IMG/VR virus record: IMGVR_UViG_2923302340_000001
DNA length: 48,684 nucleotides
Origin: a virus
Taxonomy: Duplodnaviria; Heunggongvirae; Uroviricota; Caudoviricetes
Direction: 5' to 3' (one strand)
Shown here: piece after piece, positions 5,767 to 39,034 of the stretch
How positions within the stretch are numbered: the stretch's first letter is position 1
Layout: each line of letters opens with the position of its first letter
The notes under the pieces: generated by a model
What the model saw: the letters and a program-made list of their open reading frames with translations, nothing else
Databases searched by the model: none
Told to the model about the DNA's origin: nothing
Translations under genes and position numbers: made by a program

Positions 5767-7656
5767 GTGAGTAAATTATTATTTACGATGACTGACGCCG
5801 GGCGTCAGGAGTTGGTTAATGCCAACAAAACAGGAACAAATAAAGTTGAGATTGTTTCTGTTGGTTTAGGTGGTAGATATTATGTCACGTCAACCTCACA
5901 AACAAATATAACAAACGAAATAAAACGACTTACCACAATAGGTGGCAAAGTTGTTTCCCCTGATACAATTCATGTAACGGCGAAGGATGATAGTAAAGAT
6001 GAGTATGTTGTCCATACAATAGGATTGTATACAAATAAGGGAACGTTGTTTGCTGTATACTCGCAAGAACAAGCAATAATAAATAAAGCATCATCTACTA
6101 TTGCTTTAATATCAAGTGACATAGCAATCAAGACTCTTGATACTAAAAATATTATATTTGGTGATATTGAGTTTATTAATCCTCCCGCGACCGAAACTGT
6201 TGTTGGGGTTGCAAGATTTGCTAATGAACAAGAAATTGATGCAGGTACAGATGATTCCCTTGCTGTTTCAGCAAAGCGGCTTAAGCAAGCCATTGTGAAA
6301 CATGAGCAATCACGTAATCATCCTGATGCAACTTTAACCTCAAAAGGCTTTGTTCAACTTAGCAGCGCCACCAATAGCACGTCTGAAACGCTTGCTGCGA
6401 CGCCTAAGGCTGTTAAGGCAGCATATGACCTGGCTAACGCTAAATACACCGCACAGGACGCTACCACTGCGCGGAAAGGGATTGTTCAGCTCAGTAGTGC
6501 CACCAATAGCACGTCTGAAAAGCTAGCAGCAACACCAAAGGCTGTTAAGGAAGCGTATGATCTTGCGGCCGGAAAGGCTCCTTCCAATCACACGCATTCG
6601 TGGGATCAGATTACAAATGTGCCTGTAGCTTCACTGACAGTAAGAGGAATCACTCAGCTTAGTAGCGCCACCAATAGCACGTCTGAAAAGCTAGCAGCAA
6701 CACCAAAGGCTGTTAAGGAAGCGTATGATCTTGCGGCCGGAAAGGCTCCTTCCAATCACACGCATTCGTGGGATCAGATTACAAATGTGCCTGTAGCTTC
6801 ACTGACAGTAAGAGGAATCACTCAGCTTAGTAGCGCCACCAACAGCACGTCTGAAACTCTGGCTGCGACACCGAAAGCTGTTAAGGTGGTAATGGATGAA
6901 ACAAAAAAGAAAGCCCCCCTCAACAGTCCGGCTCTGACTGGAACGCCAACAACGCCAACAGCACCAAATGGGACTAATAATACTCAGATCGCAAGCACAG
7001 CTTTCGTTATGGCTGCGATTTCCGCACTTGTAGACTCGTCACCTGACGCACTGAATACGCTGAACGAGCTGGCCGCCGCGCTTGGTAATGATCCAAATTT
7101 TGCAACCACCATGACTAACGCGCTTGCGGGTAAGCAACCGAAGGATGCCACCCTGACGGCGCTGGCAGGACTTGCTACAGCAGCAGATAAACTCCCTTAT
7201 TTTACAGGGGCAGATCGTGCCGCGTTAACCGCACTGACAAGTGTTGGACGTGCCATTCTTAGTAAGCCCAGCACACAGGGGGTTCTTGATTACCTTGGTT
7301 TACGAGAAGCGGCAAAACGGGATGTAGGGACAGGAGCAAATCAGATACCTGATATGAGTTTATTCGCGTCAATTAATACCGTAACGGCTGCTGCGCAAAA
7401 ATTTCCGTCTGGATTAATTTTACAGTGTGGCCAGTTGAATGGTGCCCCGAATGTATCTTCAACATACGGGATGAGGTTCCCGATGACGTTCTCAAGAGTC
7501 ATTGCTGTCGTAGTTACATTGAACGTTACTGGCGCGGCAGGGCAGCCGACTGTATCGGCGACAAATGTCCAGAACACTGGATTTGATATTACAGTGTCGC
7601 CCGGTTCAGGATATGGTTCATCTGCTGATGCGTATTACATTGCAATGGGATATTAA
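5767..7656 (+). CDS. tail fibre protein (constant N-terminal part plus currently expressed C-terminal cassette)
   Basis: GTG start; 629 aa; repeated ...[26 protein letters not shown]... fibre repeats; hix-like crossover site inside the coding region at 7283..7308. Confidence 0.8.
6487..6822 (+). repeat. near-perfect tandem duplication (2 x 168 bp) inside tail-fibre gene
   Basis: 6487..6654 and 6655..6822 differ at 2 positions; flanked by diverged copies of the same 56-codon unit. Confidence 0.9.
7283..7308 (+). other. candidate recombinase crossover site (hix/gix-like) inside fibre gene
   Basis: TTCTTGATTACC TT GGTTTACGAGAA: 26 bp with imperfect dyad, close to Hin hixL consensus as recalled. 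Confidence 0.5.
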
Positions 7657-10435: not shown

Positions 10436-10475
10436 TACGATTGTGGGTGTCTGGTTGGAAACTGACCAGATATGG

Positions 10476-10600
10476 AAACAAAAAGCCCGCAGATAAATCT
10501 GCGGGCTTCTTGCGACATCCACGGAAAACCAACAAAACAATCCATGGGCGCCTCGACAACTCCCATTATACGTTGGTTTTCCGTGGACGCAAGAGCGAAC
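10476..10600 (-). ncRNA. candidate antisense RNA (CopA-like) opposite the repA leader
   Basis: Minus-strand intrinsic terminator (GCCCGCAG-ATAAAT-CTGCGGGC then T-run, 10476..10506) and 15-bp perfect stem 10519..10533 / 10572..10586 directly upstream of repA start. Confidence 0.3.
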
Positions 10601-10602
10601 AT

Positions 10603-11451
10603 ATGGATAGACCAATGCCGTCTCTACGTTCAGCTTACGTTTGTAATTTGTCGCCGGAGTTCCAGCCTCCAAAGCACCATACGCACAAGCTGCCGCTGGT
10701 GTTATCTGATGCTTTACAGCGCATTTATGGGCGTGATCTTACGTGTGAGGTTGCGTTCTACGTTAATCAACCGTCAGAGCGGAAGCGCCGGATAAACGAG
10801 CATCGTCGTCGGGCGATTAATGCTGTGATTGCTGCGATTTTGCACCATGTAAACATCATTTCTAAGCGGGTTCTGGCCAGTGCTGAGGCGTTGGCTGATT
10901 TTTGCGGCCTGTCTACCGTATCCGAAGCTGGGAACAAATCTATAACGCGCTGTACAAGGGCGTTGTCGCAACTGAAAGCGTTAGGTTTTATTGATTATGA
11001 ACGTCGCTGGGATCGGGTGAATAAACAGTATTGGCCAGCGAAAATAGAGATTCGTGATCAACTGCTGGAAACAGTTGGTATTACTGAACAAGCATGGAGA
11101 CGTGCGGTTAGCCAGAAACTTAATTACTTCAATGCGAAGAATAGCGAACGGCTTAAAAAAGCGATAACGGAGGCTGATTATAAGCGTATTGTTATTCAGG
11201 AGCAGATGGAGAATGTATGGCGTCAGAGGAAGACGGCCAGAGAGATAAAGGCAAAACAGAAAGCAGCGGAGAGAGCTGCGCGTCTTGTTCGGGAAAAGGG
11301 AGAGGCCGAACTTCGTCATCAAATCACTAGAGAGGTTAGCCAGGAATTTGCTGATGGCATGTATCCAGGTGCTGACCTTGCATATTTACGCTCCCTCGTT
11401 GATCAGCGTTATAACAGGCTAAGAAAGACCTGGACATCACTCCAACATTAA
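10603..11451 (+). CDS. repA: replication initiator RepA, IncFII RepA1-like
   Basis: ...RRRAINAVIAAILHH...CGLSTVSEAGNKSITRCTRALSQLKALGFIDYER... resembles RepA1 of IncFII plasmids (recollection); track start 10441 is an in-frame upstream extension; ATG at 10603 or 10615. Confidence 0.7.
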   Translation: MDRPMPSLRSAYVCNLSPEFQPPKHHTHKLPLVLSDALQRIYGRDLTCEVAFYVNQPSERKRRINEHRRRAINAVIAAILHHVNIISKRVLASAEALADFCGLSTVSEAGNKSITRCTRALSQLKALGFIDYERRWDRVNKQYWPAKIEIRDQLLETVGITEQAWRRAVSQKLNYFNAKNSERLKKAITEADYKRIVIQEQMENVWRQRKTAREIKAKQKAAERAARLVREKGEAELRHQITREVSQEFADGMYPGADLAYLRSLVDQRYNRLRKTWTSLQH

Positions 11452-11486: not shown

Positions 11487-11700
11487 TTATCCACGTCGCA
11501 ATAAAATAGCTGTTCAAAAAACAAGCTAAATTAATTTTCTCTAAACCTGAACACAGCGAAAATATCGTCTTTACAGGCATCAACTAATCAAGTTATCCAC
11601 AGTTTTGATATGTATATGCAAATGGTTTTTTATAATAGATGCACTAAACAAATAAATGCAAAATCACTTTCTTTTATTAAAACTTTCTTTATTTAACTTA
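11487..11700. other. putative plasmid origin (oriR-like)
   Basis: DnaA-box-like TTATCCACG (11487..11495) and perfect TTATCCACA (11593..11601) followed by ~100 bp AT-rich DNA, directly downstream of repA. Confidence 0.4.
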
Positions 11701-14534: not shown

Positions 14535-14561
14535 CGCAAAGTGTCATTTTGACACTTTGCG
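14535..14561. promoter_or_regulatory. 27-bp palindrome CGCAAAGTGTCA-TTT-TGACACTTTGCG
   Basis: 12-bp perfect arms, between 14146..14526 and the HTH gene. Confidence 0.4.
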
Positions 14562-14589
14562 AGTGTTAATATTGTGCGAGGAGGGTGCT

Positions 14590-14862
14590 ATGACGGGTTA
14601 TGAATTGAAATTATGGCGTCGTGGGATGAACTGGACGCAGGAGCGAGCCGCCGAAGAATTTGGGATATCGTTGGCTACATATAAGCGATATGAGAAGGGG
14701 GAGCCGCCGAGGGTCATTGAGATGGCCATTCGCGTTCTGTCGTTTGACGATATGGTGAAGGATCTTTCACACCTTGATAAAGACGCGATTCTGTTAAGGC
14801 TGCAAACCCTTGTATGGGAAAAGGTTAAAGTGTCGTCAGAATTGGAACAAGGGATCAAATGA
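14590..14862 (+). CDS. XRE-family HTH protein
   Basis: AGGAGG-type RBS upstream of ATG 14590; ...WTQERAAEEFGISLATYKRYEKG... Confidence 0.45.
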   Translation: MTGYELKLWRRGMNWTQERAAEEFGISLATYKRYEKGEPPRVIEMAIRVLSFDDMVKDLSHLDKDAILLRLQTLVWEKVKVSSELEQGIK

Positions 14863-14910
14863 TCCTTTACGGATCGTTTTATGGTGGTGTAATGTAAGCG
14901 CCAGAAAGAC

Positions 14911-17498: not shown

Positions 17499-17662
17499 GG
17501 TGATAGTTCCCTTAAAGGTTAAGGATACTCACCACCGTCTGGTTCCAATCATTGGGTGGTGAGACGTACAGGGTTGGAACTACCGGTCACCATGGAATCC
17601 GGCGAGTCTTACGACTCCCCCGCACGCCCCACCATAATTTGGGTGTAGCAGTGCTTTACGCA

Positions 17663-17683
17663 TAAAAAAACCGCTAACGCGGT
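17663..17683 (-). terminator. candidate intrinsic terminator (minus strand)
   Basis: ACCGC-TAAC-GCGGT followed on the minus strand by T7. Confidence 0.4.
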
Positions 17684-17828
17684 ATGCGCCATGATGATTA
17701 TCGGGGTTCCAATCCCGACCGTAGATTTTGCTACGGCTCGGAAAGTGTCCACCAATGGCGCATTCATGTCAATACGGCGGGATTTTAACAGAGACAACCA
17801 CATAGCGTGGGTTTATTGGTAGGCAGAA

Positions 17829-17857
17829 ACAAAAAAACCGCCCTATTGAGGACGGTT
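17829..17857 (-). terminator. candidate intrinsic terminator (minus strand)
   Basis: AACCGCCC-TATTGA-GGACGGTT followed on the minus strand by T7GTTT. Confidence 0.4.
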
Positions 17858-18234
17858 CTTTCGTGCTGATCGGATTCGCGGTCCTTTCAGCATTACGTTG
17901 TTGTATAAATACAACCACGCAAGCACAAACAGCGATCATATTCTTACCCAACTGAATAAAATTGTCCAAATAAATTTGGTTTATTAGAGCACAAAAGCGA
18001 GTGATTTTTGTGGTGTGTATTTAAGTTGATGAAAAACAATATGTTTTTATCCCTTCATTATGAAGGGGCTGCGGTGTAACATTACGCGGGGCCTTTTCGC
18101 CGATTCGCAACCGGGCACCGACTTTCAGGAAAGGATTATCCACTTGCCGTACCACGCAGGCACAAACAGCGTGCTTGCTCTCGCGTCATTTTCGTCGGTG
18201 GGGATGCCGTGAAACGGCCTGTAAGGGCCACACA

Positions 18235-18357
18235 ATGAAAAAATACTACATGTGTATTTTTATCGTTGTTACTGGAGCTTTGTTTACGCCACATGGGGAG
18301 GGTTGGAAGATTACTGATAACGCTCTGAATGTGACGATAAACATTAGCAGCAAGTAG
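18235..18357 (+). CDS. small hydrophobic peptide (40 aa)
   Basis: MKKYYMCIFIVVTGALF...; followed by a strong terminator. Confidence 0.2.
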   Translation: MKKYYMCIFIVVTGALFTPHGEGWKITDNALNVTINISSK

Positions 18358-18362
18358 CGATT

Positions 18363-18386
18363 AGGCCCCTTCGGGGGCTTTTTTTA
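18363..18386 (+). terminator. intrinsic terminator
   Basis: AGGCCCC-TTCG-GGGGC followed by T7. Confidence 0.6.
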
Positions 18387-29692: not shown

Positions 29693-29768
29693 GGCCCCTT
29701 AGCTTAGTGGTTAGAGCAGGCGACTCATAATCGCACGGTCATCGGTTCAAATCCGGTAGGGGCCACCA
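29693..29768 (+). tRNA. tRNA with anticodon CAU (Met, or lysidine-modified Ile2 type)
   Basis: 76-nt cloverleaf: acceptor stem GGCCCCU/AGGGGCC, T-loop TTCAAAT, anticodon loop CTCATAA, encoded 3' CCA. Confidence 0.85.
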
Positions 29769-30076: not shown

Positions 30077-30664
30077 ATGGAGGCAATTGCATTGTTTAAT
30101 CTGATTTATGCAGATCCCCCCTGGGAATACAAAGATAAGTGTAAGGATGGGAATCGTGGAGCTGGTTTTAAGTATCCAACGATGAAAGCTGAGGATATTG
30201 CTCGTATTCCTGTCTGGCAGCTTGCTAATCCTGAATCGTGTTTGTTGGCCATGTGGTGGGTTCCGACTCAGCCAGAAGAAGCGTTGCTGGTGGTGAAAGC
30301 ATGGGGATTCAGGCTTATGACCATGAAGGGCTTCACATGGAACAAATGTGGTAGCCGACAACCAGATAAGCTGGTGATGGGGATGGGGCATATGACTCGT
30401 GCAAACAGTGAAGATTGCTTGTTTGCGGTAAAAGGCAAATTGCCGACCCGCCTTGATGCGGGGATCATTCAGTCGTTTACATCGCCTCGTCTGGAGCATT
30501 CTCGGAAGCCTGATGTGGTTCGTGACAAGCTGGTAAGGCTGTTAGGTGATGTTCCTCGTATTGAGCTGTTTGCTCGCGGTGATTTACCTGATGGTTGGCA
30601 TGGCTGGGGCAACCAGTGCAATGGAGGTATCCAGTTGCATGATGCTCTCTGGCAAGTGGCATAG
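30077..30664 (+). CDS. DNA adenine methyltransferase, MT-A70-like
   Basis: N-terminal ...IYADPPWEYKDK... (DPPW motif). Confidence 0.65.
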   Translation: MEAIALFNLIYADPPWEYKDKCKDGNRGAGFKYPTMKAEDIARIPVWQLANPESCLLAMWWVPTQPEEALLVVKAWGFRLMTMKGFTWNKCGSRQPDKLVMGMGHMTRANSEDCLFAVKGKLPTRLDAGIIQSFTSPRLEHSRKPDVVRDKLVRLLGDVPRIELFARGDLPDGWHGWGNQCNGGIQLHDALWQVA

Positions 30665-32740: not shown

Positions 32741-33364
32741 ATGACAAAACATCTTAATGTGGTTTCTTTACCACTTTCTGTGTTGATTGGTTATGAAAAG
32801 AACGCTCGCACACACTCCGTGGAGCAGGTAGATCAGATTGTTGCCAGCATACAGGAGTACGGATGGACTAATCCGATCCTGATAGACGAGAACAATGTTG
32901 TAATTGCTGGTCATGGTCGAATTGCTGCGGCCACTCAGTTGGGGATGGATGATGTTCCCTGCATTGTTCTGGAAGGGCTAACGGAGAATCAGAAGAAGGC
33001 ATATCGTCTGGCCGACAACCGTATTCCGCTGAATGCTGGTTGGGATGAAGAGTTGTTAAGCGCGGAGCTTGCAGATCTTGCGGCCGATGATTTTGCTCTG
33101 GACTCAATTGGTTTTACTCAGCGCGAACTGGATAACTTATTGAGTGCGGCGGTCTACGATGACACAGAGGGTATGGATATCCCATTTGAGAAGGATGAGG
33201 CCAAATCAGGCGTAAAAGTTCAGTACCTGTCATTTGGAGGTCATAAAATCCCGGCAACGGATGAGGAAGCGGATCGTTTTGACTGCGCGGTGTCTCGTTA
33301 TGTTGATGATAATGGCAGCTATATCGGATTTGTATCCGCATTGCTGGCTGGGGAGGTGTGCTGA
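32741..33364 (+). CDS. ParB-like nuclease-domain protein
   Basis: ...ILIDENNVVIAGHGRIAAA...; paralogue of 36031..36621. Confidence 0.55.
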   Translation: MTKHLNVVSLPLSVLIGYEKNARTHSVEQVDQIVASIQEYGWTNPILIDENNVVIAGHGRIAAATQLGMDDVPCIVLEGLTENQKKAYRLADNRIPLNAGWDEELLSAELADLAADDFALDSIGFTQRELDNLLSAAVYDDTEGMDIPFEKDEAKSGVKVQYLSFGGHKIPATDEEADRFDCAVSRYVDDNGSYIGFVSALLAGEVC

Positions 33365-34737
33365 TGCTTCACCTGAATTACGACATAACGCACCTACGCG
33401 GCGCGGAATATAACCCGCGTTTTATCGGTGAGGATGATCTTGCGAGGCTGGCGGAAAGTGTCAGGGAGCTGGGGCTTGTGAAGCCATTGATAGTGCGCGG
33501 CGATTTGCTGGTGGCGGGACACCAAAGGACGAAGGCGCTACGTAAGTTGGGAATAACGCGTGCTGCGGTGTATGTGTTGCCCTGTGAAACGACGGTATAC
33601 GATGAAGTACGGTTTAACCAACTGCATAACGGAACGGATTTTGATAGCGGAGATGAGCGTTGCAGGGTGTCCGGTCTGGAAGATAAGCATGGTTTTGTTC
33701 AGGTATCGGCAAGCCAGATCTCAGGCAATATGCGCGCGAAAATGGCATATGTTCGAAAGAACATAGCGGAACTGGTTATCAAGTATGGTCCGTGGGGTGG
33801 TTGTGTTGCTACTCAGTCTGGCGAGGTTATTCACTGTGCTCAGTATGCATTAGCAGCGAAGATGACGCGCACACCGCTAACGGTGTTTGTGATCCCTGAT
33901 GTTGAGAAGGAAAAATACCAAAGTTATCTGAATAAAACTTATGGTGTATTTGAGTATTCTCATCTGGAGAAAACAACATACATCCAGACGTATGCGCAGC
34001 TTATGCGGTTGCGTAATGGTGGCAGCCTGAAATCAAACCTGTATGAGTCGTTGATCCTCCCGATCATTGCCAAGACGCCAAGAGGAATTGATTTTGGTTC
34101 GGGGCAGGGAGACTACGCGCGAATGCTCAGGGCAAAGGGATATAACCTGCATGATCTTGAGCTTTTTCGCCGTAAGGGCGCTGGAAACACTCTGGATAGG
34201 GCTGCAACAAACCGAATGATTGATACGCTGGTGGACGACTTAAAAACGCGAGGGCGTTACGACTACGTGATTTGCGATAGCGTTTTGAACTCGGTCGATA
34301 GTGTCGAGGCTGAATGGTCCGTTCTGACGGTTCTGAAAGGCCTGTGTAAAGCTGGTGGGTCAATATTCTTTTCTGGCCGTAGCCGTGGAGAGCTGGAGAG
34401 TGTGCTTAAACGAACGCAAGCTGCTAGCTCTATAAGCCGGCTTTATTTTATTGACCATAACGGTTTTTCTGCTTTGTACCGGAAGGGACACTGGTTTTAT
34501 CAGAAGTTCCATTCTGATGAGGAAGTGAAGCAATTGTGCCGTGAGCATAGCTTCAGAATAAAGCGGTCGGTATTTAACGGTAAGAGCTGGTATTTGCACG
34601 TTATTAACGATGATTCTCTTCGCTGGGAGAGTCTGGAGAAAGCTGTTCATTTTGAGTTTGAGTTGCCGTTGCCTGGCGGTTCAACAATCGGACGATCTGA
34701 TGATGTGCTGGCGGCTTTCCGGCCGTTGATTAAGTAG
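33358..34737 (+). CDS. fusion protein: ParB-like N-terminal domain plus class I SAM-methyltransferase-like C-terminal domain
   Basis: ...LIVRGDLLVAGHQRTKA... then GIDFGSGQGDYARML (motif I-like), ...YDYVICDSVLNS..., ...GGSIFFSG... Confidence 0.5.
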   Translation: MLMLHLNYDITHLRGAEYNPRFIGEDDLARLAESVRELGLVKPLIVRGDLLVAGHQRTKALRKLGITRAAVYVLPCETTVYDEVRFNQLHNGTDFDSGDERCRVSGLEDKHGFVQVSASQISGNMRAKMAYVRKNIAELVIKYGPWGGCVATQSGEVIHCAQYALAAKMTRTPLTVFVIPDVEKEKYQSYLNKTYGVFEYSHLEKTTYIQTYAQLMRLRNGGSLKSNLYESLILPIIAKTPRGIDFGSGQGDYARMLRAKGYNLHDLELFRRKGAGNTLDRAATNRMIDTLVDDLKTRGRYDYVICDSVLNSVDSVEAEWSVLTVLKGLCKAGGSIFFSGRSRGELESVLKRTQAASSISRLYFIDHNGFSALYRKGHWFYQKFHSDEEVKQLCREHSFRIKRSVFNGKSWYLHVINDDSLRWESLEKAVHFEFELPLPGGSTIGRSDDVLAAFRPLIK

Positions 34738-34753: not shown

Positions 34754-35473
34754 GTGGCTGACAGAATTGAGATAAAGATGGATTTTTCTTCTCAGGATAT
34801 TCAACGACAACTCCAGCGCCTTGAAGAACGCGAATTGCCATTCGCAATGGCGCTTGCGGCAACCAGAACGGCAAAGGCTTCTCAGGCTGCGATTAAGAAT
34901 GAAATTAATCGGGTATTTGACAGGCCCACGCCGTGGATTCAGAACTCTACTTACGTTTTGGCCGCAAAGAAGAGTGATCCTACAGCCATTGTGTATGCTC
35001 GTGAATGGGGAGGAACGCCAGCCCCTGTAACGTTGACTCCGCAAATCGAAGGTGGCCAACGACAGTACAAACGCTCAGAAGGGGCGCTAAGGGCTGGTGG
35101 ATATTTGCCTAACGGCTGGCAGCTTGCTCCTGGTCCCGGCGCAAAGCTGGACAAATACGGGAATATTTCGCGGGGGCAATTACAGCAGGTCTTATCTGGC
35201 CTAAGAGTTCAGCGAGATGCGCATCAAAATCGCCGTCAGGGCAAGCCTACGGAGTTTTTTGTTGTTCGACCTGGTACAAGTAACCCGCTTCAACCAGGCG
35301 TCTGGCAGCGCGTTGGGCGGCGTCCTACGTTGATCCTTACGTTCATTCAGCAACCTAACTATTCGCAGCGTCTTGATTGGCATGGCGTGGCACTGCGTGC
35401 TGGTGAGGATGCGTTTGCTGATGAAGTCACAAAGGCTATTGATGACATTCTTTCTAAGACCTTCTCTCGTTAA
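34754..35473 (+). CDS. hypothetical protein
   Basis: 239 aa; Gly/Pro/Gln-rich central region. Confidence 0.3.
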   Translation: MADRIEIKMDFSSQDIQRQLQRLEERELPFAMALAATRTAKASQAAIKNEINRVFDRPTPWIQNSTYVLAAKKSDPTAIVYAREWGGTPAPVTLTPQIEGGQRQYKRSEGALRAGGYLPNGWQLAPGPGAKLDKYGNISRGQLQQVLSGLRVQRDAHQNRRQGKPTEFFVVRPGTSNPLQPGVWQRVGRRPTLILTFIQQPNYSQRLDWHGVALRAGEDAFADEVTKAIDDILSKTFSR

Positions 35474-35774
35474 TCATCGTGTGGTTGATGGTGTTGTTAT
35501 GCAGAGTGTATTCACTGTGTTCTGTAGCGTCGCTCGCTGGCTGTCTGTGGGGGAGCACGAGCATCGTTTCATCGTCCGGCAGAATTGGGTCCTTCTGGCC
35601 AAAAGCGTTGGATGCGGGTCATTCGAACCCCGATGTTCGGCTAGCTAAACGTGAAAAAAGTTAGGTTAAAAGTTGCGGTAAAAGAAATTTACTCATCTCA
35701 TTGAAAAATATCGGGAAAACGTGATTTTTTGCTGTATTTGTGCTGGTAAAAAGAAAGTAGGAAATTTTCTTTTA

Positions 35775-35959
35775 GATCATCAAGATACGCGCAGATCTTT
35801 AACCAATGTGATGTTGTTCTGATAAAAATCGTTATAAATCATGCAAATACATCCGATCTTTTAACCAAAACACCATCGCAAGATCCTTTTTACTTATAAA
35901 AACTTAATAAAATCAGATAATTATGCTGGTTTGTGTGATTTTTTATGAGTAAAAAGATC
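35775..35959. repeat. GATC-dense AT-rich region with repeated GATCTTT(T)AACC
   Basis: 5 GATC in 185 bp (35775, 35794, 35855, 35882, 35956); GATCTTTAACC at 35794 and GATCTTTTAACC at 35855. Confidence 0.5.
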
Positions 35960-36030
35960 GTCATTTTTCTCTTTTAGTATCAATAAGTTAAACAGTTTTC
36001 TTTAACCTGTTGTGTTATGGCGGTTAAAAA

Positions 36031-36621
36031 ATGGCTCTAAAAATCGAATATTTACCAGTCGGTAAGCTGCTCAGATATGCCAAAAATTCACGGACTCATT
36101 CAGATGAGCAAGTTGAACAGTTGGTGAACAGTATCCGTGAGTTCGGTTTCACTAATCCTGTGCTGATCGATGAAAAGAATGAACTGATTGCGGGGCATGG
36201 TCGGCTTGCAGCAGCCGAAATTCTGGAAATGGATAAAGTTCCGGCGATTCGGTTGAGTAACCTTTCTGAAAAACAGAAGAAGGCTTACAGGATTGCAGAT
36301 AACAAGCTGGCCTTAAATGCTGGTTGGGATATGCAGCTTCTGGCCGAAGAAGTCAAAGAGTTAATGGATGATGATTTTGATATTGATCTGCTTGGGTTTA
36401 ATGATGCAGAGCTTGACGAAATGTTAAGCGATGAACAGCCGCAGGAAGAAGACGATAATTCTTCCCCTGTTGTTCAAATTAAGTACCTGGCTATTGATAA
36501 AGAACGTATTCCCGCGACGGATATGGAAATTGCATTGTTGCTGGATGTTTATCGTCAGTACCACGACGCGCATGAAACGCATGAGGGATTTGTTCAGTAT
36601 CTTGCTAATGGTTGCAAGTAA
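36031..36621 (+). CDS. ParB-like nuclease-domain protein (paralogue)
   Basis: ...VLIDEKNELIAGHGRLAAA...; overlaps start of terminase small subunit. Confidence 0.55.
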   Translation: MALKIEYLPVGKLLRYAKNSRTHSDEQVEQLVNSIREFGFTNPVLIDEKNELIAGHGRLAAAEILEMDKVPAIRLSNLSEKQKKAYRIADNKLALNAGWDMQLLAEEVKELMDDDFDIDLLGFNDAELDEMLSDEQPQEEDDNSSPVVQIKYLAIDKERIPATDMEIALLLDVYRQYHDAHETHEGFVQYLANGCK

Positions 36622-37177: not shown

Positions 37178-39034
37178 ATGGGCGAAACAGTATGGAGCAC
37201 CGCTTTTTTCCGTGCGCTTCGCCCTAAATCACGGCTAACTGTTTCCGAATGGGCTGATAAGTATCGTCATGTAGCGCCGGGAACGTCTCCAGAGCCAGGG
37301 CCGTGGCGTACAAGCCGAGTGCCATATTTGCGTGAACCAATGGATGTTATTGGTGACGCTGATACAGAAACAGTAGTGATGCAATGTAGCTCGCAAATTG
37401 GTAAATCCGAATTACAGCTAAATGTTATGGGTTACTTTGCAGATCAGGAGCCATCTCCTCAGTTGATGATTTATCCAACGGTAGAGGCGGCTGAGGCTTT
37501 TTCAAAGGAGCGTATTGATCCGACGTTCAAATATTCCCCTGGTTTAAAACACAAGCTGCATGAAGGGAAAGAGGGGCGCGGTGCAGCCAAAAAGTCCAGC
37601 ACGACTATACGTATGAAGCATTACGCTGGTGGATATATAGCACTTGTTGGTGCTAATTCCCCAGCAGGTCTTGCATCCAGGCCAATTCGAATACTGTTAG
37701 CTGATGAGATTGATCGTTACGGTGTGACGCAGGAGGGCGACCCACTAAAACTAGGTATTCAGCGTACTACCAACTTTCATAATCGTAAGAAAGTTTTTGT
37801 TTCTACTCCTGTTTTGGAGGAAACGAGCAAAATCCACAAGTGGTTTAAGCTCTCCGATCAGCGTTACTACCATGTTCCTTGCCCATGTTGTGGCACCATG
37901 CAGGTGATGAAATGGTCGCAAGTCAGATGGGATAAGAGCGATTCAGGTGAGGCGTTACCGGAAACGGCCAGATATGAGTGCTGTGAGTGCGGCGGGATTA
38001 TGCGCGGATCTGGTAAACCAGACGTTGATTGGTTGGCGAAGGGGGTATGGATAGCTGAACATACTGGAGTTAAAGGTATTGTTGGTTTTCATATTAACAG
38101 TCTTTACTCCCCGTGGGTTGCATTGTCAGAGCTGGTTGAAGAATTTACGGAAGCAACCAGAAACCGCGATAAAAATGGATTAATGGAGTTTATTAACCTT
38201 AAGCTGGGTGAGCCATGGAAAGAGGATGCTAAAGACGATATCGATCCTGAATACTTGTTGCAACGCAGAATAAGGTTTGAAGAGTTTTTACCAGATGATG
38301 TTTTATTGTTAAGTGCTGGTGTTGACGTACAGGACACGTATTTAGTTTGTGAATTGGTCGGTTGGGGAAAAGGTAAGGAGTCATGGGGGATAGAATATAA
38401 AATATTCCCAGGTGATCCCGCACAAGATGTTGTCTGGAAACAACTTGATGAATACTTACTCCGTAGCTGGTCATTCCGTGACGGTCGAAAATTACAGATT
38501 TCTTCCGTTTGTATTGACTCTGGTGGGCATTTTACGACAGAGGTATATCGCTTTACTAAGCCGAGAGAATCAAGGCGAATATACTCTATCAGGGGGCGTG
38601 GTGGGGTAGGTTTACCATTTATAGGAAAGCCAAGTAATAATAACCGTGTGGGTGCTATGTTGTTTAATTTGGGGGTTGATGATGGTAAAGGGACCATCAT
38701 GGCAAGAATTAAACTACATGATCCTGGTCCTGGTTATATGCATTTCCCATTAGATTCTGACAGAGGATATGATACCGAATACTTTAAAGGATTATTATCA
38801 GAGAAGAAAATATTTGAATATAAAAATGGGCAGACAAAAGAAAAGTGGGTGAAAGTCTACGAGCGTAACGAGCCTCTTGATTGCCGTAACTATGCAACTG
38901 CCGCGATGGAAATTCTGAACCCTAATTTTAACTGGCTTGCCGAACAGGAAATGCGAGGTAATGTGTATGTGCAGAACTCGTCAGGTATACGTAGAAGACG
39001 CCGTAGAGTTATAAGTAAAGGCGTAAACATATAG
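37178..39034 (+). CDS. terminase large subunit (lambda gpA-like)
   Basis: 618 aa; ...LTVSEWADKYRHVAPG... and overall architecture of gpA family. Confidence 0.85.
   Translation: MGETVWSTAFFRALRPKSRLTVSEWADKYRHVAPGTSPEPGPWRTSRVPYLREPMDVIGDADTETVVMQCSSQIGKSELQLNVMGYFADQEPSPQLMIYPTVEAAEAFSKERIDPTFKYSPGLKHKLHEGKEGRGAAKKSSTTIRMKHYAGGYIALVGANSPAGLASRPIRILLADEIDRYGVTQEGDPLKLGIQRTTNFHNRKKVFVSTPVLEETSKIHKWFKLSDQRYYHVPCPCCGTMQVMKWSQVRWDKSDSGEALPETARYECCECGGIMRGSGKPDVDWLAKGVWIAEHTGVKGIVGFHINSLYSPWVALSELVEEFTEATRNRDKNGLMEFINLKLGEPWKEDAKDDIDPEYLLQRRIRFEEFLPDDVLLLSAGVDVQDTYLVCELVGWGKGKESWGIEYKIFPGDPAQDVVWKQLDEYLLRSWSFRDGRKLQISSVCIDSGGHFTTEVYRFTKPRESRRIYSIRGRGGVGLPFIGKPSNNNRVGAMLFNLGVDDGKGTIMARIKLHDPGPGYMHFPLDSDRGYDTEYFKGLLSEKKIFEYKNGQTKEKWVKVYERNEPLDCRNYATAAMEILNPNFNWLAEQEMRGNVYVQNSSGIRRRRRRVISKGVNI

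Follow-up and report, generated by a model that had tools for sequence, protein, structure and literature searches.

In phage lambda, the large terminase subunit (TerL) gpA cuts the packaging site cos to give 12-nt cohesive ends beginning with GG. The element cosQ lies upstream of the nicking site cosN, three R sites within ca. 120 bp (cosB) stand to its right, with R3 and R2 placed around the bend site I1, and the packaging genes follow immediately. Phage P1, a plasmid prophage, is instead packaged by the headful mechanism through PacA/PacB, and the several GATCs found within ca. 160 to 190 bp beside its packaging genes belong to TGATC(A/G) hexamers that flank the cut. Here, we analyzed IMG/VR record IMGVR_UViG_2923302340_000001 (48,684 nt; the window, that is, the whole stretch of DNA studied), which is a ca. 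48-kb Escherichia coli phage-plasmid with myovirus-type (P2-like contractile) tail genes. A first-pass annotation had noticed a cluster of GATC tetramers, the targets of Dam methylation, just upstream of its packaging genes and had likened it to P1 pac. Our analysis supports a packaging role for the 557-bp intergenic gap that holds these tetramers (35474-36030), while it gives no support to Dam control, to a pac site of the P1 type, to a promoter, or to an origin of replication. We consider it likely that the gap is a lambda-type cos region, in which a nine-copy repeat array is the counterpart of cosB for the small terminase subunit (TerS) and the GATCs are incidental.

The genome ends were located from the boundaries of database records and from the ends mapped in a homologous phage. 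Among the Yersinia phage records ca. 99% identical to the window, vB_YpM_41 and vB_YpM_39 start at the equivalent of 35617 and vB_YpM_44 at that of 35629, so that the offset is exactly the 12-mer GGTCATTCGAAC. This 12-mer was invariant in all 11 of the group 1 sequences checked (group 1, at least 96% identical; group 2, relatives of ca. 68% identity). TerS homologues with 35 to 43% identity are found in Vibrio phages X29, phi 2, Rostov 7, vB_VpaM_XM1 (XM1), R19R, and others and in Acinetobacter phage HFM1 (51 kb). The linear record of XM1 has the homologous 12-mer GGTGCTCGCGAC at both ends (a 12-nt terminal duplication), those of X29 and R19R are broken within it after 11 and 10 nt, respectively, and a metagenomic contig (L076) terminates exactly at GGTGCGGGCGAC. 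In HFM1, the 5' cohesive end annotated with PhageTerm, GGACCGAGGAC, lies at the homologous position and is followed by CCC. All of these independent records break inside one 13-nt window at the homologous position, which reads GCG/GGTnnnnnGnAC/CCCG in the family alignment (slashes mark nicks), most members continuing with TTCGnCTAGCT. The ends of the present genome are accordingly predicted at cosN, 35617-35628, with nicks at 35616/35617 on the top strand and 35628/35629 on the bottom strand. We infer the 5' polarity of the overhang from the HFM1 annotation and from knowledge of gpA-family terminases.

Positions 35585-35690 were almost invariant in comparison with the IMG/VR relatives that are ca. 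68% identical in the gap, and the flanks diverged. At the left of this block, TTGGGTCCTTCTGG was invariant in group 2, with 110 bp upstream of it diverged and containing indels; it recurs at an identical 32-nt spacing from the nick in XM1 and as a close variant in X29 and Rostov 7. Across the family alignment, either TTGGGTCCTTCTGG or GGTACTYY stands at a fixed distance upstream of the nick. By analogy with the position of lambda cosQ, we regard this as a cosQ-like element. To the right of cosN, the E. coli element shares conserved CCCG and TTCGnCTAGCT with the Vibrio, Methyloprofundus, and metagenomic relatives (TerS 39 to 57% identical). CTAG is very rare in the window (24 copies), yet one copy lies within the conserved CTAGCT element beside cosN. 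The DNA at cosN showed no unusual hairpin fold (z = 0.19). A candidate tRNA or attP remnant at GGGTCATTCGAACCCC near 35616, which has the look of a T arm, was rejected, as ARAGORN and Rfam were negative and the site coincides with the predicted cosN.

None of the records examined carried a cos annotation, and a literature search gave no description of the site, no paper on the Yersinia phages vB_YpM, and none on the cohesive-end 12-mers. The XM1 paper does not discuss termini, and the preprint on 613R2 describes an in silico prophage prediction with no virion. The cos site was previously unannotated and is otherwise an ordinary lambda-like one. The first-pass annotation had placed a packaging site in the gap upstream of the ParB-like and terminase genes, and the predicted cosN is indeed in this intergenic region. 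The predicted ends, however, lie outside the GATC stretch, whose first GATC stands 147 bp rightward of the bottom-strand nick.

Between cosN and the start of the ParB-like gene, the 9-bp motif CTTTTWACC occurs nine times, on either strand (Table 1). The 48.7-kb window contains four exact matches, three of which fall in 35629-36030 (0.03 expected); GGTTAAA is found five times in this stretch and nine times in the other 48 kb. In group 2, eight copies occupy matching positions. Copy a, conserved in group 2, takes the position of the first GTTAAC-type repeat in the Vibrio phages and in a relative with a 57% identical TerS (L071). In the latter, 560 bp contain ten exact TTGTTAACC, of which, as in the window, the three leading copies share an orientation and the others are inverted. 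Five direct GGTTAACAC repeats occupy about 140 bp in the Vibrio phages, GTTAAC-type repeats stand in the corresponding place in three further relatives (L043, L074, and L076), and a scan of genome contigs returned only five distant loci. By analogy, the array is most likely the counterpart of lambda cosB. The repeat GATCTTT(T)AACC singled out in the first-pass annotation (occurrences GATCTTTAACC at 35794 and GATCTTTTAACC at 35855) does matter in this sense, as a member of an array that most likely guides the terminase. In L071 (IMGVR_UViG_640753048_000002, 46.8 kb), the gap from cos to the ParB-like gene is at 1352-1907, and some of the TTGTTAACC copies are within a larger repeated unit of ca. 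31 bp (AAATCATnnCnTTAACCTnCATTTGTTAACC) that overlaps IHF-like matches (IHF, integration host factor).

Table 1. Coordinates of features in and beside the predicted cos region (GATCs numbered 1 to 5 from left to right; motif, CTTTTWACC)
Feature	Coordinates	Strand	Evidence or remark
cosQ-like element TTGGGTCCTTCTGG	35585-35598	+	19 to 32 bp upstream of left nick
cosN, predicted 12-nt cohesive end GGTCATTCGAAC	35617-35628	+	Record boundaries and homologue end mapping
Conserved right flank of cosN, CCCG...TTCGGCTAGCTA	35629-35647	+	Cross-family conservation
Motif copy a, GGTTAAAAG (CTTTTAACC on minus strand)	35664-35672	-	Exact match; proximal cosB-like site
Motif copy b, GGTAAAAG	35677-35684	-	Conserved in group 2
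Motif copy c, GGTAAAAAG	35745-35753	-	Exact match; conserved in L022-type group 2 members
Seemingly dispensable 90-bp segment	35755-35844	none	Holds GATC 1, GATC 2, and motif copy d
GATC-dense region	35775-35959	none	Five GATCs
Motif copy d, TCTTTAACC	35796-35804	+	GATC 2 precedes
Motif copy e, CTTTTAACC	35858-35866	+	Exact match; GATC 3 precedes
Left arm of inverted repeat, GATCCTTTTTACT	35882-35894	+	GATC 4 and motif copy f (from 35886, plus strand)
IHF-like site AATCAGATAATTA	35911-35923	+	One mismatch to WATCAANNNNTTR; between inverted arms; consensus match only
Right arm of inverted repeat, GAGTAAAAAGATC	35947-35959	-	Motif copy g (from 35948, minus strand) and GATC 5
Exact IHF consensus TATCAATAAGTTA	35978-35990	+	One of 5 window matches, chance level genome-wide
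Motif copy h, TCTTTAACC	35999-36007	+	Conserved in group 2
Motif copy i, GGTTAAAAA	36022-36030	-	Abuts ParB-like start codon
ParB/Srx N-terminal-domain protein, 196 aa	36031-36621	+	Pfam ParB_N, E = 3.8e-8; phrog_620
Small terminase subunit TerS, 183 aa	36621-37172	+	phrog_57, E = 7e-42
Large terminase subunit TerL, lambda gpA family	37178-39034	+	Pfam GpA_ATPase, E = 7e-76; GpA_nuclease, E = 1e-84

These elements can be assembled into a mechanism of the lambda type. TerL, in which the ATPase and nuclease domains of the gpA family are both present, would nick GCG/GGTCATTCGAAC/CCCG to leave 12-nt 5' cohesive ends. TerS, through a putative N-terminal winged-helix domain, most likely binds the array and would position TerL at cosN, IHF would bend the DNA between the two arms of an inverted repeat, and packaging would run to the right, entering the ParB-like gene and then terS and terL. 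The N terminus of TerS (IVSKSEFARRKGISPAMVTKLCRSGRIPV) gave a single PDB profile hit, a weak one over residues 5 to 34 to the winged-helix protein Cox of phage P2 (E = 0.04; phrog_575), and there were weak AbiEi winged-helix matches as well. Arrays of 9-bp repeats are common to this locus and the P2 cox boxes, but the similarity covers 30 residues, and Cox is an excisionase/repressor and no terminase subunit. The putative recognition segment differs between lineages with different motifs, a covariation that is consistent with TerS as the reader and inseparable from shared ancestry. An apparent natural exchange of TerS (L034/L078, where TerS looked only 49% identical over the same DNA) proved to be a disrupted or fused terS frame in that contig.

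The repeats might instead be read by a ParB-like protein, either the ParB/Srx protein directly downstream or the two ParB-like proteins encoded at 32741-34737. The array would then be a parS-like loading site with an accessory role in packaging, DNA protection, or plasmid maintenance. The order of the ParB-like, TerS, and TerL genes is kept in the Vibrio, Methyloprofundus, and metagenomic relatives, with the array always directly upstream of the ParB-like gene (HFM1 aside). In addition, the GTTAAC core of the relatives is palindromic, like parS, and long arrays sit in plasmid elements of E. coli and Salmonella (L071 is presumably a plasmid as well). On the other hand, HFM1, whose genome encodes no ParB-like homologue at all, has a homologous TerS and retains the cosN; of the six GTGTTAA copies in that genome, two lie between cosN and terS, in the 185 bp that precede the latter. 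Since HFM1 keeps the repeats without such a homologue, we favor TerS over the ParB-like protein as the reader. Moreover, Pfam finds only the ParB/Srx N-terminal domain and no helix-turn-helix in the protein, and there is a separate ParA locus ca. 17 kb away. On balance, recognition by a ParB-like protein appears unlikely. A single-sequence AlphaFold model of this protein was too poor to use (mean pLDDT of 47).

Three open reading frames (ORFs) with ParB/Srx N-terminal domains (32741-33364, 33358-34737, and 36031-36621) flank cos. One of them is fused to an S-adenosylmethionine (SAM) methyltransferase domain (459 aa, phrog_5475). In tblastn searches, the ParB/Srx N-terminal domain was mostly the N terminus of phage adenine methyltransferases, and in several phage records it is encoded near the record end. 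The product of 30077-30664 is annotated in RefSeq as an MT-A70-family methyltransferase and had no NCBIfam match; with this protein and, as a second such enzyme, the methyltransferase fused to ParB, the element may modify its own DNA.

We then examined the GATCs themselves. The description in the first-pass annotation was accurate as far as the letters go: five GATCs (35775, 35794, 35855, 35882, and 35956) are present in 185 bp with a G+C content of 29.7% (surrounding DNA, 27 to 33%), two of them in the repeat mentioned above. The tetramer is depleted in the window overall (134 versus 171 ± 13 expected). Dinucleotide shuffles of the 185 bp gave a mean of 0.8 GATC and reached five in none of 5,000 trials, a test biased by the fact that the boundaries of the region were picked on the GATCs themselves. 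For the entire 557-bp gap, five were found versus 1.5 expected (P of about 0.01), and a genome-wide scan statistic with the 134 sites placed uniformly gave a probability of 0.16 for at least five in any 185 bp. The cluster is real and locally nonrandom, yet it is no conserved property of the element. It is the densest of the window, which has further spots with four GATCs in 115 bp (14761-14875) and four in 217 bp (6559-6775). The density typical of the family, four in 185 bp, is matched elsewhere in the window. Three of the GATCs in the second-densest cluster, 14761-14875, are within 23 bp (14853-14875, GGGATCAAATGATCCTTTACGGATCG) at the 3' end of ORF 14557-14862, the fourth being at 14761, and a G+C-rich terminator-like hairpin (AAAAACCGCCTTGCCGGGCGGTTTT) lies ca. 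30 bp downstream of the last.

In four of the five cases, the GATC directly precedes a motif copy on its 5' side, giving the units GATC-TTTAACC (35794), GATC-TTTTAACC (35855), GATCC-TTTTTAC (35882), and GATC-TTTTTAC on the other strand (35956). The units at 35794 and 35855 share longer flanks (ATAC...GATCTTT(T)AACCAA), and both this pair and that at 35882 and 35956 look like duplicated units. The corresponding flank in L071 frequently reads GAT-TTGTTAACC. The clustering arises because a repeated unit has a flank that happens to read GATC in this lineage; it is a by-product of repeat structure and duplication, with no selected Dam target.

Within the array, the GATC-dense stretch is the distal part, and it evolves fast. 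Among 25 group 1 sequences, five GATCs were present only in two (the window and ATCC 25922), four in 21, three in one, and two in one. Three of the sites vary within this group. GATC 3 is a minority allele, the flank reading AATC in 21 of the 25; GATC 1 is GATA in vB_YpM_41, and GATC 2 is GAAC in vB_YpM_39 and in an Escherichia albertii plasmid. A natural experiment is provided by vB_YpM_44 (OR545055.1), the deposited complete genome of a phage isolated on Yersinia pestis EV76-CN, in which 35755-35844 is precisely deleted; this 90-bp segment is probably not essential. In group 2, GATCs 1 and 3 are absent throughout and GATC 2 is kept in a single member (L018). Copy d keeps its TTTAACC core there behind a TTTT flank instead of GATC. 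GATCs 4 and 5 are usually present, five members having lost one or both. Among 14 group 1 sequences, the density of polymorphic sites was 0.146 per bp in the GATC region versus 0.038 in the block from cosQ to cosN, and the GATC bases were polymorphic at the same rate as their surroundings (3 of 20), with a lower rate in the motif cores (5 of 80). A required cluster of Dam sites should not show such variation, and the alignments indicate that the GATCs are not under selection.

These data bear directly on the proposal of a Dam- or SeqA-sensitive control, in which packaging (as at P1 pac) or late transcription would depend on the methylation state of these sites. The local enrichment, the abutting of four GATCs on putative protein-binding motifs, and the conservation of GATCs 4 and 5 in most group 2 relatives at the outer ends of the inverted repeat speak for such a control. 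The variation and deletion of GATCs 1 to 3 in near-identical sequences, the loss of GATC 4 and/or 5 in some group 2 members, the polymorphism of the GATC bases, the genome-wide scan statistic, and the distance to the ends speak against it, and we judge it very unlikely. The resemblance to P1 pac does not survive closer comparison either, despite the number of GATCs, their place beside the packaging genes, and the plasmid prophage state. The terminase is of the gpA/cos type, with no PacAB and a fixed 12-nt break site, and none of the five GATCs is in the hexamer TGATC(A/G) on either strand (AGATCA, AGATCT, CGATCT, AGATCC, and AGATCG).

GATCs 4 and 5 form the outer ends of a 13-bp inverted pair, which both lineages retain with a single compensatory change. 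An IHF-like site stands between its arms and is conserved in group 2 as AATCAGACAATTA. The region contains one exact and two one-mismatch matches to the IHF consensus versus 0.65 expected, which in such AT-rich DNA is suggestive only. Inverted sites placed around a possible bend site recall, by analogy, R3-I1-R2 of lambda. In the window, 35882-35959 can fold as a 78-nt hairpin (-25.7 kcal/mol, z = -5.5), and an RNA element was considered. Only the 13-bp outer stem is kept in the relatives, the inner stem not being conserved, a pattern that fits paired protein sites better, and Rfam was negative. The location of GATCs 4 and 5 at the outer bases of the inverted GATCYTTTTTACY could make binding of the terminase or of a ParB-like protein Dam sensitive, for which we see only a slim chance. 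If true, a phage-plasmid, with cos permanently in the cell, could couple cos recognition or the expression of packaging genes to the replication state of its DNA (hemimethylated versus fully methylated).

Several observations weigh against a lambda-type cos region with TerS as the reader of its array. The Yersinia phage records are labelled circular, so their start points are indirect evidence for genome ends. An array of nine sites over ca. 400 bp is far larger than the three R sites of lambda, and the Vibrio relatives need only ca. 140 bp, so the distal, GATC-holding part may serve another role. The preference for TerS over the ParB-like protein comes from one lineage, HFM1, and from weak helix-turn-helix similarity. 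Finally, the persistence of GATCs 4 and 5 in most group 2 relatives gives an effect of methylation at these two sites a small residual probability.

Given the size of this AT-rich gap directly 5' of the first packaging gene, its distal part (ca. 35700-36030) could also be a regulated promoter/operator for the operon of the ParB-like, terS, terL, and head genes, with the repeats as operator sites for an activator or repressor. Inverted repeats are common in operators, and conserved blocks outside the motifs, such as AATAAAATCAGATAATTATG, hold a GATAAT hexamer. However, a scan of 35300-36200 found no sigma-70 promoter (2.4 promoter-like sites expected by chance) and no intrinsic terminator. The genes from about 21 kb onwards are all co-oriented, so read-through across cos would be sufficient, as in lambda, and in the Vibrio relatives the ca. 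140 bp available are filled with repeats. We rate a promoter/operator here as quite unlikely.

A replication origin, either the plasmid oriV or a lytic origin with GATCs sequestered by SeqA as in oriC or P1 oriR, would share with the region the AT richness, the GATCs, and the short repeats. Nonetheless, repA (10441-11451) lies about 24 kb from the region, which has no DnaA box, the single perfect one of the window (11593-11601) being beside repA; no oriC 13-mer match was found in the region, and the same architecture is present at the physical left end of relatives that are not plasmids. An origin at this place is scarcely credible. The perfect DnaA box, TTATCCACA, is 140 bp downstream of repA and is followed by tandem AT-rich 15-mers, ACTTTCTTTTATTAA and ACTTTCTTTATTTAA (11666-11696), which make this a plausible plasmid oriV.

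Compared with lambda, then, the locus has a gpA-family TerL, a predicted 12-nt cohesive end that also begins with GG, a conserved element at about the cosQ position, short repeated sites from cosN to the terminase genes that include an inverted pair with an IHF-like site between its arms, and packaging genes immediately to the right. It differs in the number and spread of the repeats, in a motif unrelated in sequence to the R sites, in the ParB/Srx-domain gene between the array and terS, in a TerS with no gpNu1 similarity detectable in PDB searches, and in being maintained as a RepA plasmid. The cos region belongs, as judged from sequence comparison, to the TerS/TerL lineage of the Vibrio X29/XM1-group phages and HFM1. 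These share with it the gpA TerL, the cosN context GCG/GG...AC/CCC(G) (with TTCGTCTAGCT also shared by the Vibrio phages), and GTTAA-type repeats between cosN and the next gene. In contrast, the Vibrio arrays are shorter and built from a different motif variant, HFM1 has an 11-nt end, and neither the Vibrio phages nor HFM1 has a GATC cluster in the interval.

The phage-plasmid nature of the window follows from plasmid matches, from a RefSeq plasmid that also encodes phage genes, and from the ca. 99% identical Yersinia phage records. Among matches in complete E. coli genomes, 70 of 71 were on plasmids of ca. 47 to 50 kb, including pATCC25922_1, and PLSDB lists 61 plasmids, classed as nonmobilizable. 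The RefSeq annotation of pATCC25922_1 includes repA, a ParA gene, a RelE/ParE toxin-antitoxin pair, a full lambda-like head gene set, and P2-like tail genes. More than 11,000 indexed assembly blocks contain the exact ParB-like protein. E. coli ATCC 25922, a reference strain, carries the element, as do Yersinia phages that were isolated on Y. pestis EV76. In the window, the upstream neighbor of the gap is a phrog_1924 ORF, and the genes downstream encode the ParB-like protein, TerS, gpA-family TerL, a head-tail adaptor, and a lambda-family portal. The entire window (1-48684), with repA, ParA, the RelE/ParE pair, and the lambda-like head and P2-like tail genes, appears to be a complete, circularly permuted genome of the phage-plasmid.

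The phage-plasmid is very widespread, its 47- to 50-kb plasmid form being present in about 70 complete E. coli genomes. Knowing its cosN and array gives the correct orientation of genome records, predicts packageable DNA, with a bearing on the mobilization of cos plasmids or satellites and on transduction, and provides a defined substrate for a TerS family without a solved structure. For the GATCs, the value of the result is mostly negative, and their reading as a Dam cluster can be set aside.

Rfam matches were found to a C4 antisense RNA (17552-17639, minus strand), isrK (17664-17737, minus strand), and ryfA (18087-18385, plus strand), and this cluster at 17552-18385 suggests an immunity module of the P1/P7 c4 type. 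A tRNA gene with a CAT anticodon at 29693-29768, called tRNA-Met by ARAGORN versus tRNA-Ile in the RefSeq annotation of pATCC25922_1, sits between the lysis genes and the methyltransferase gene.

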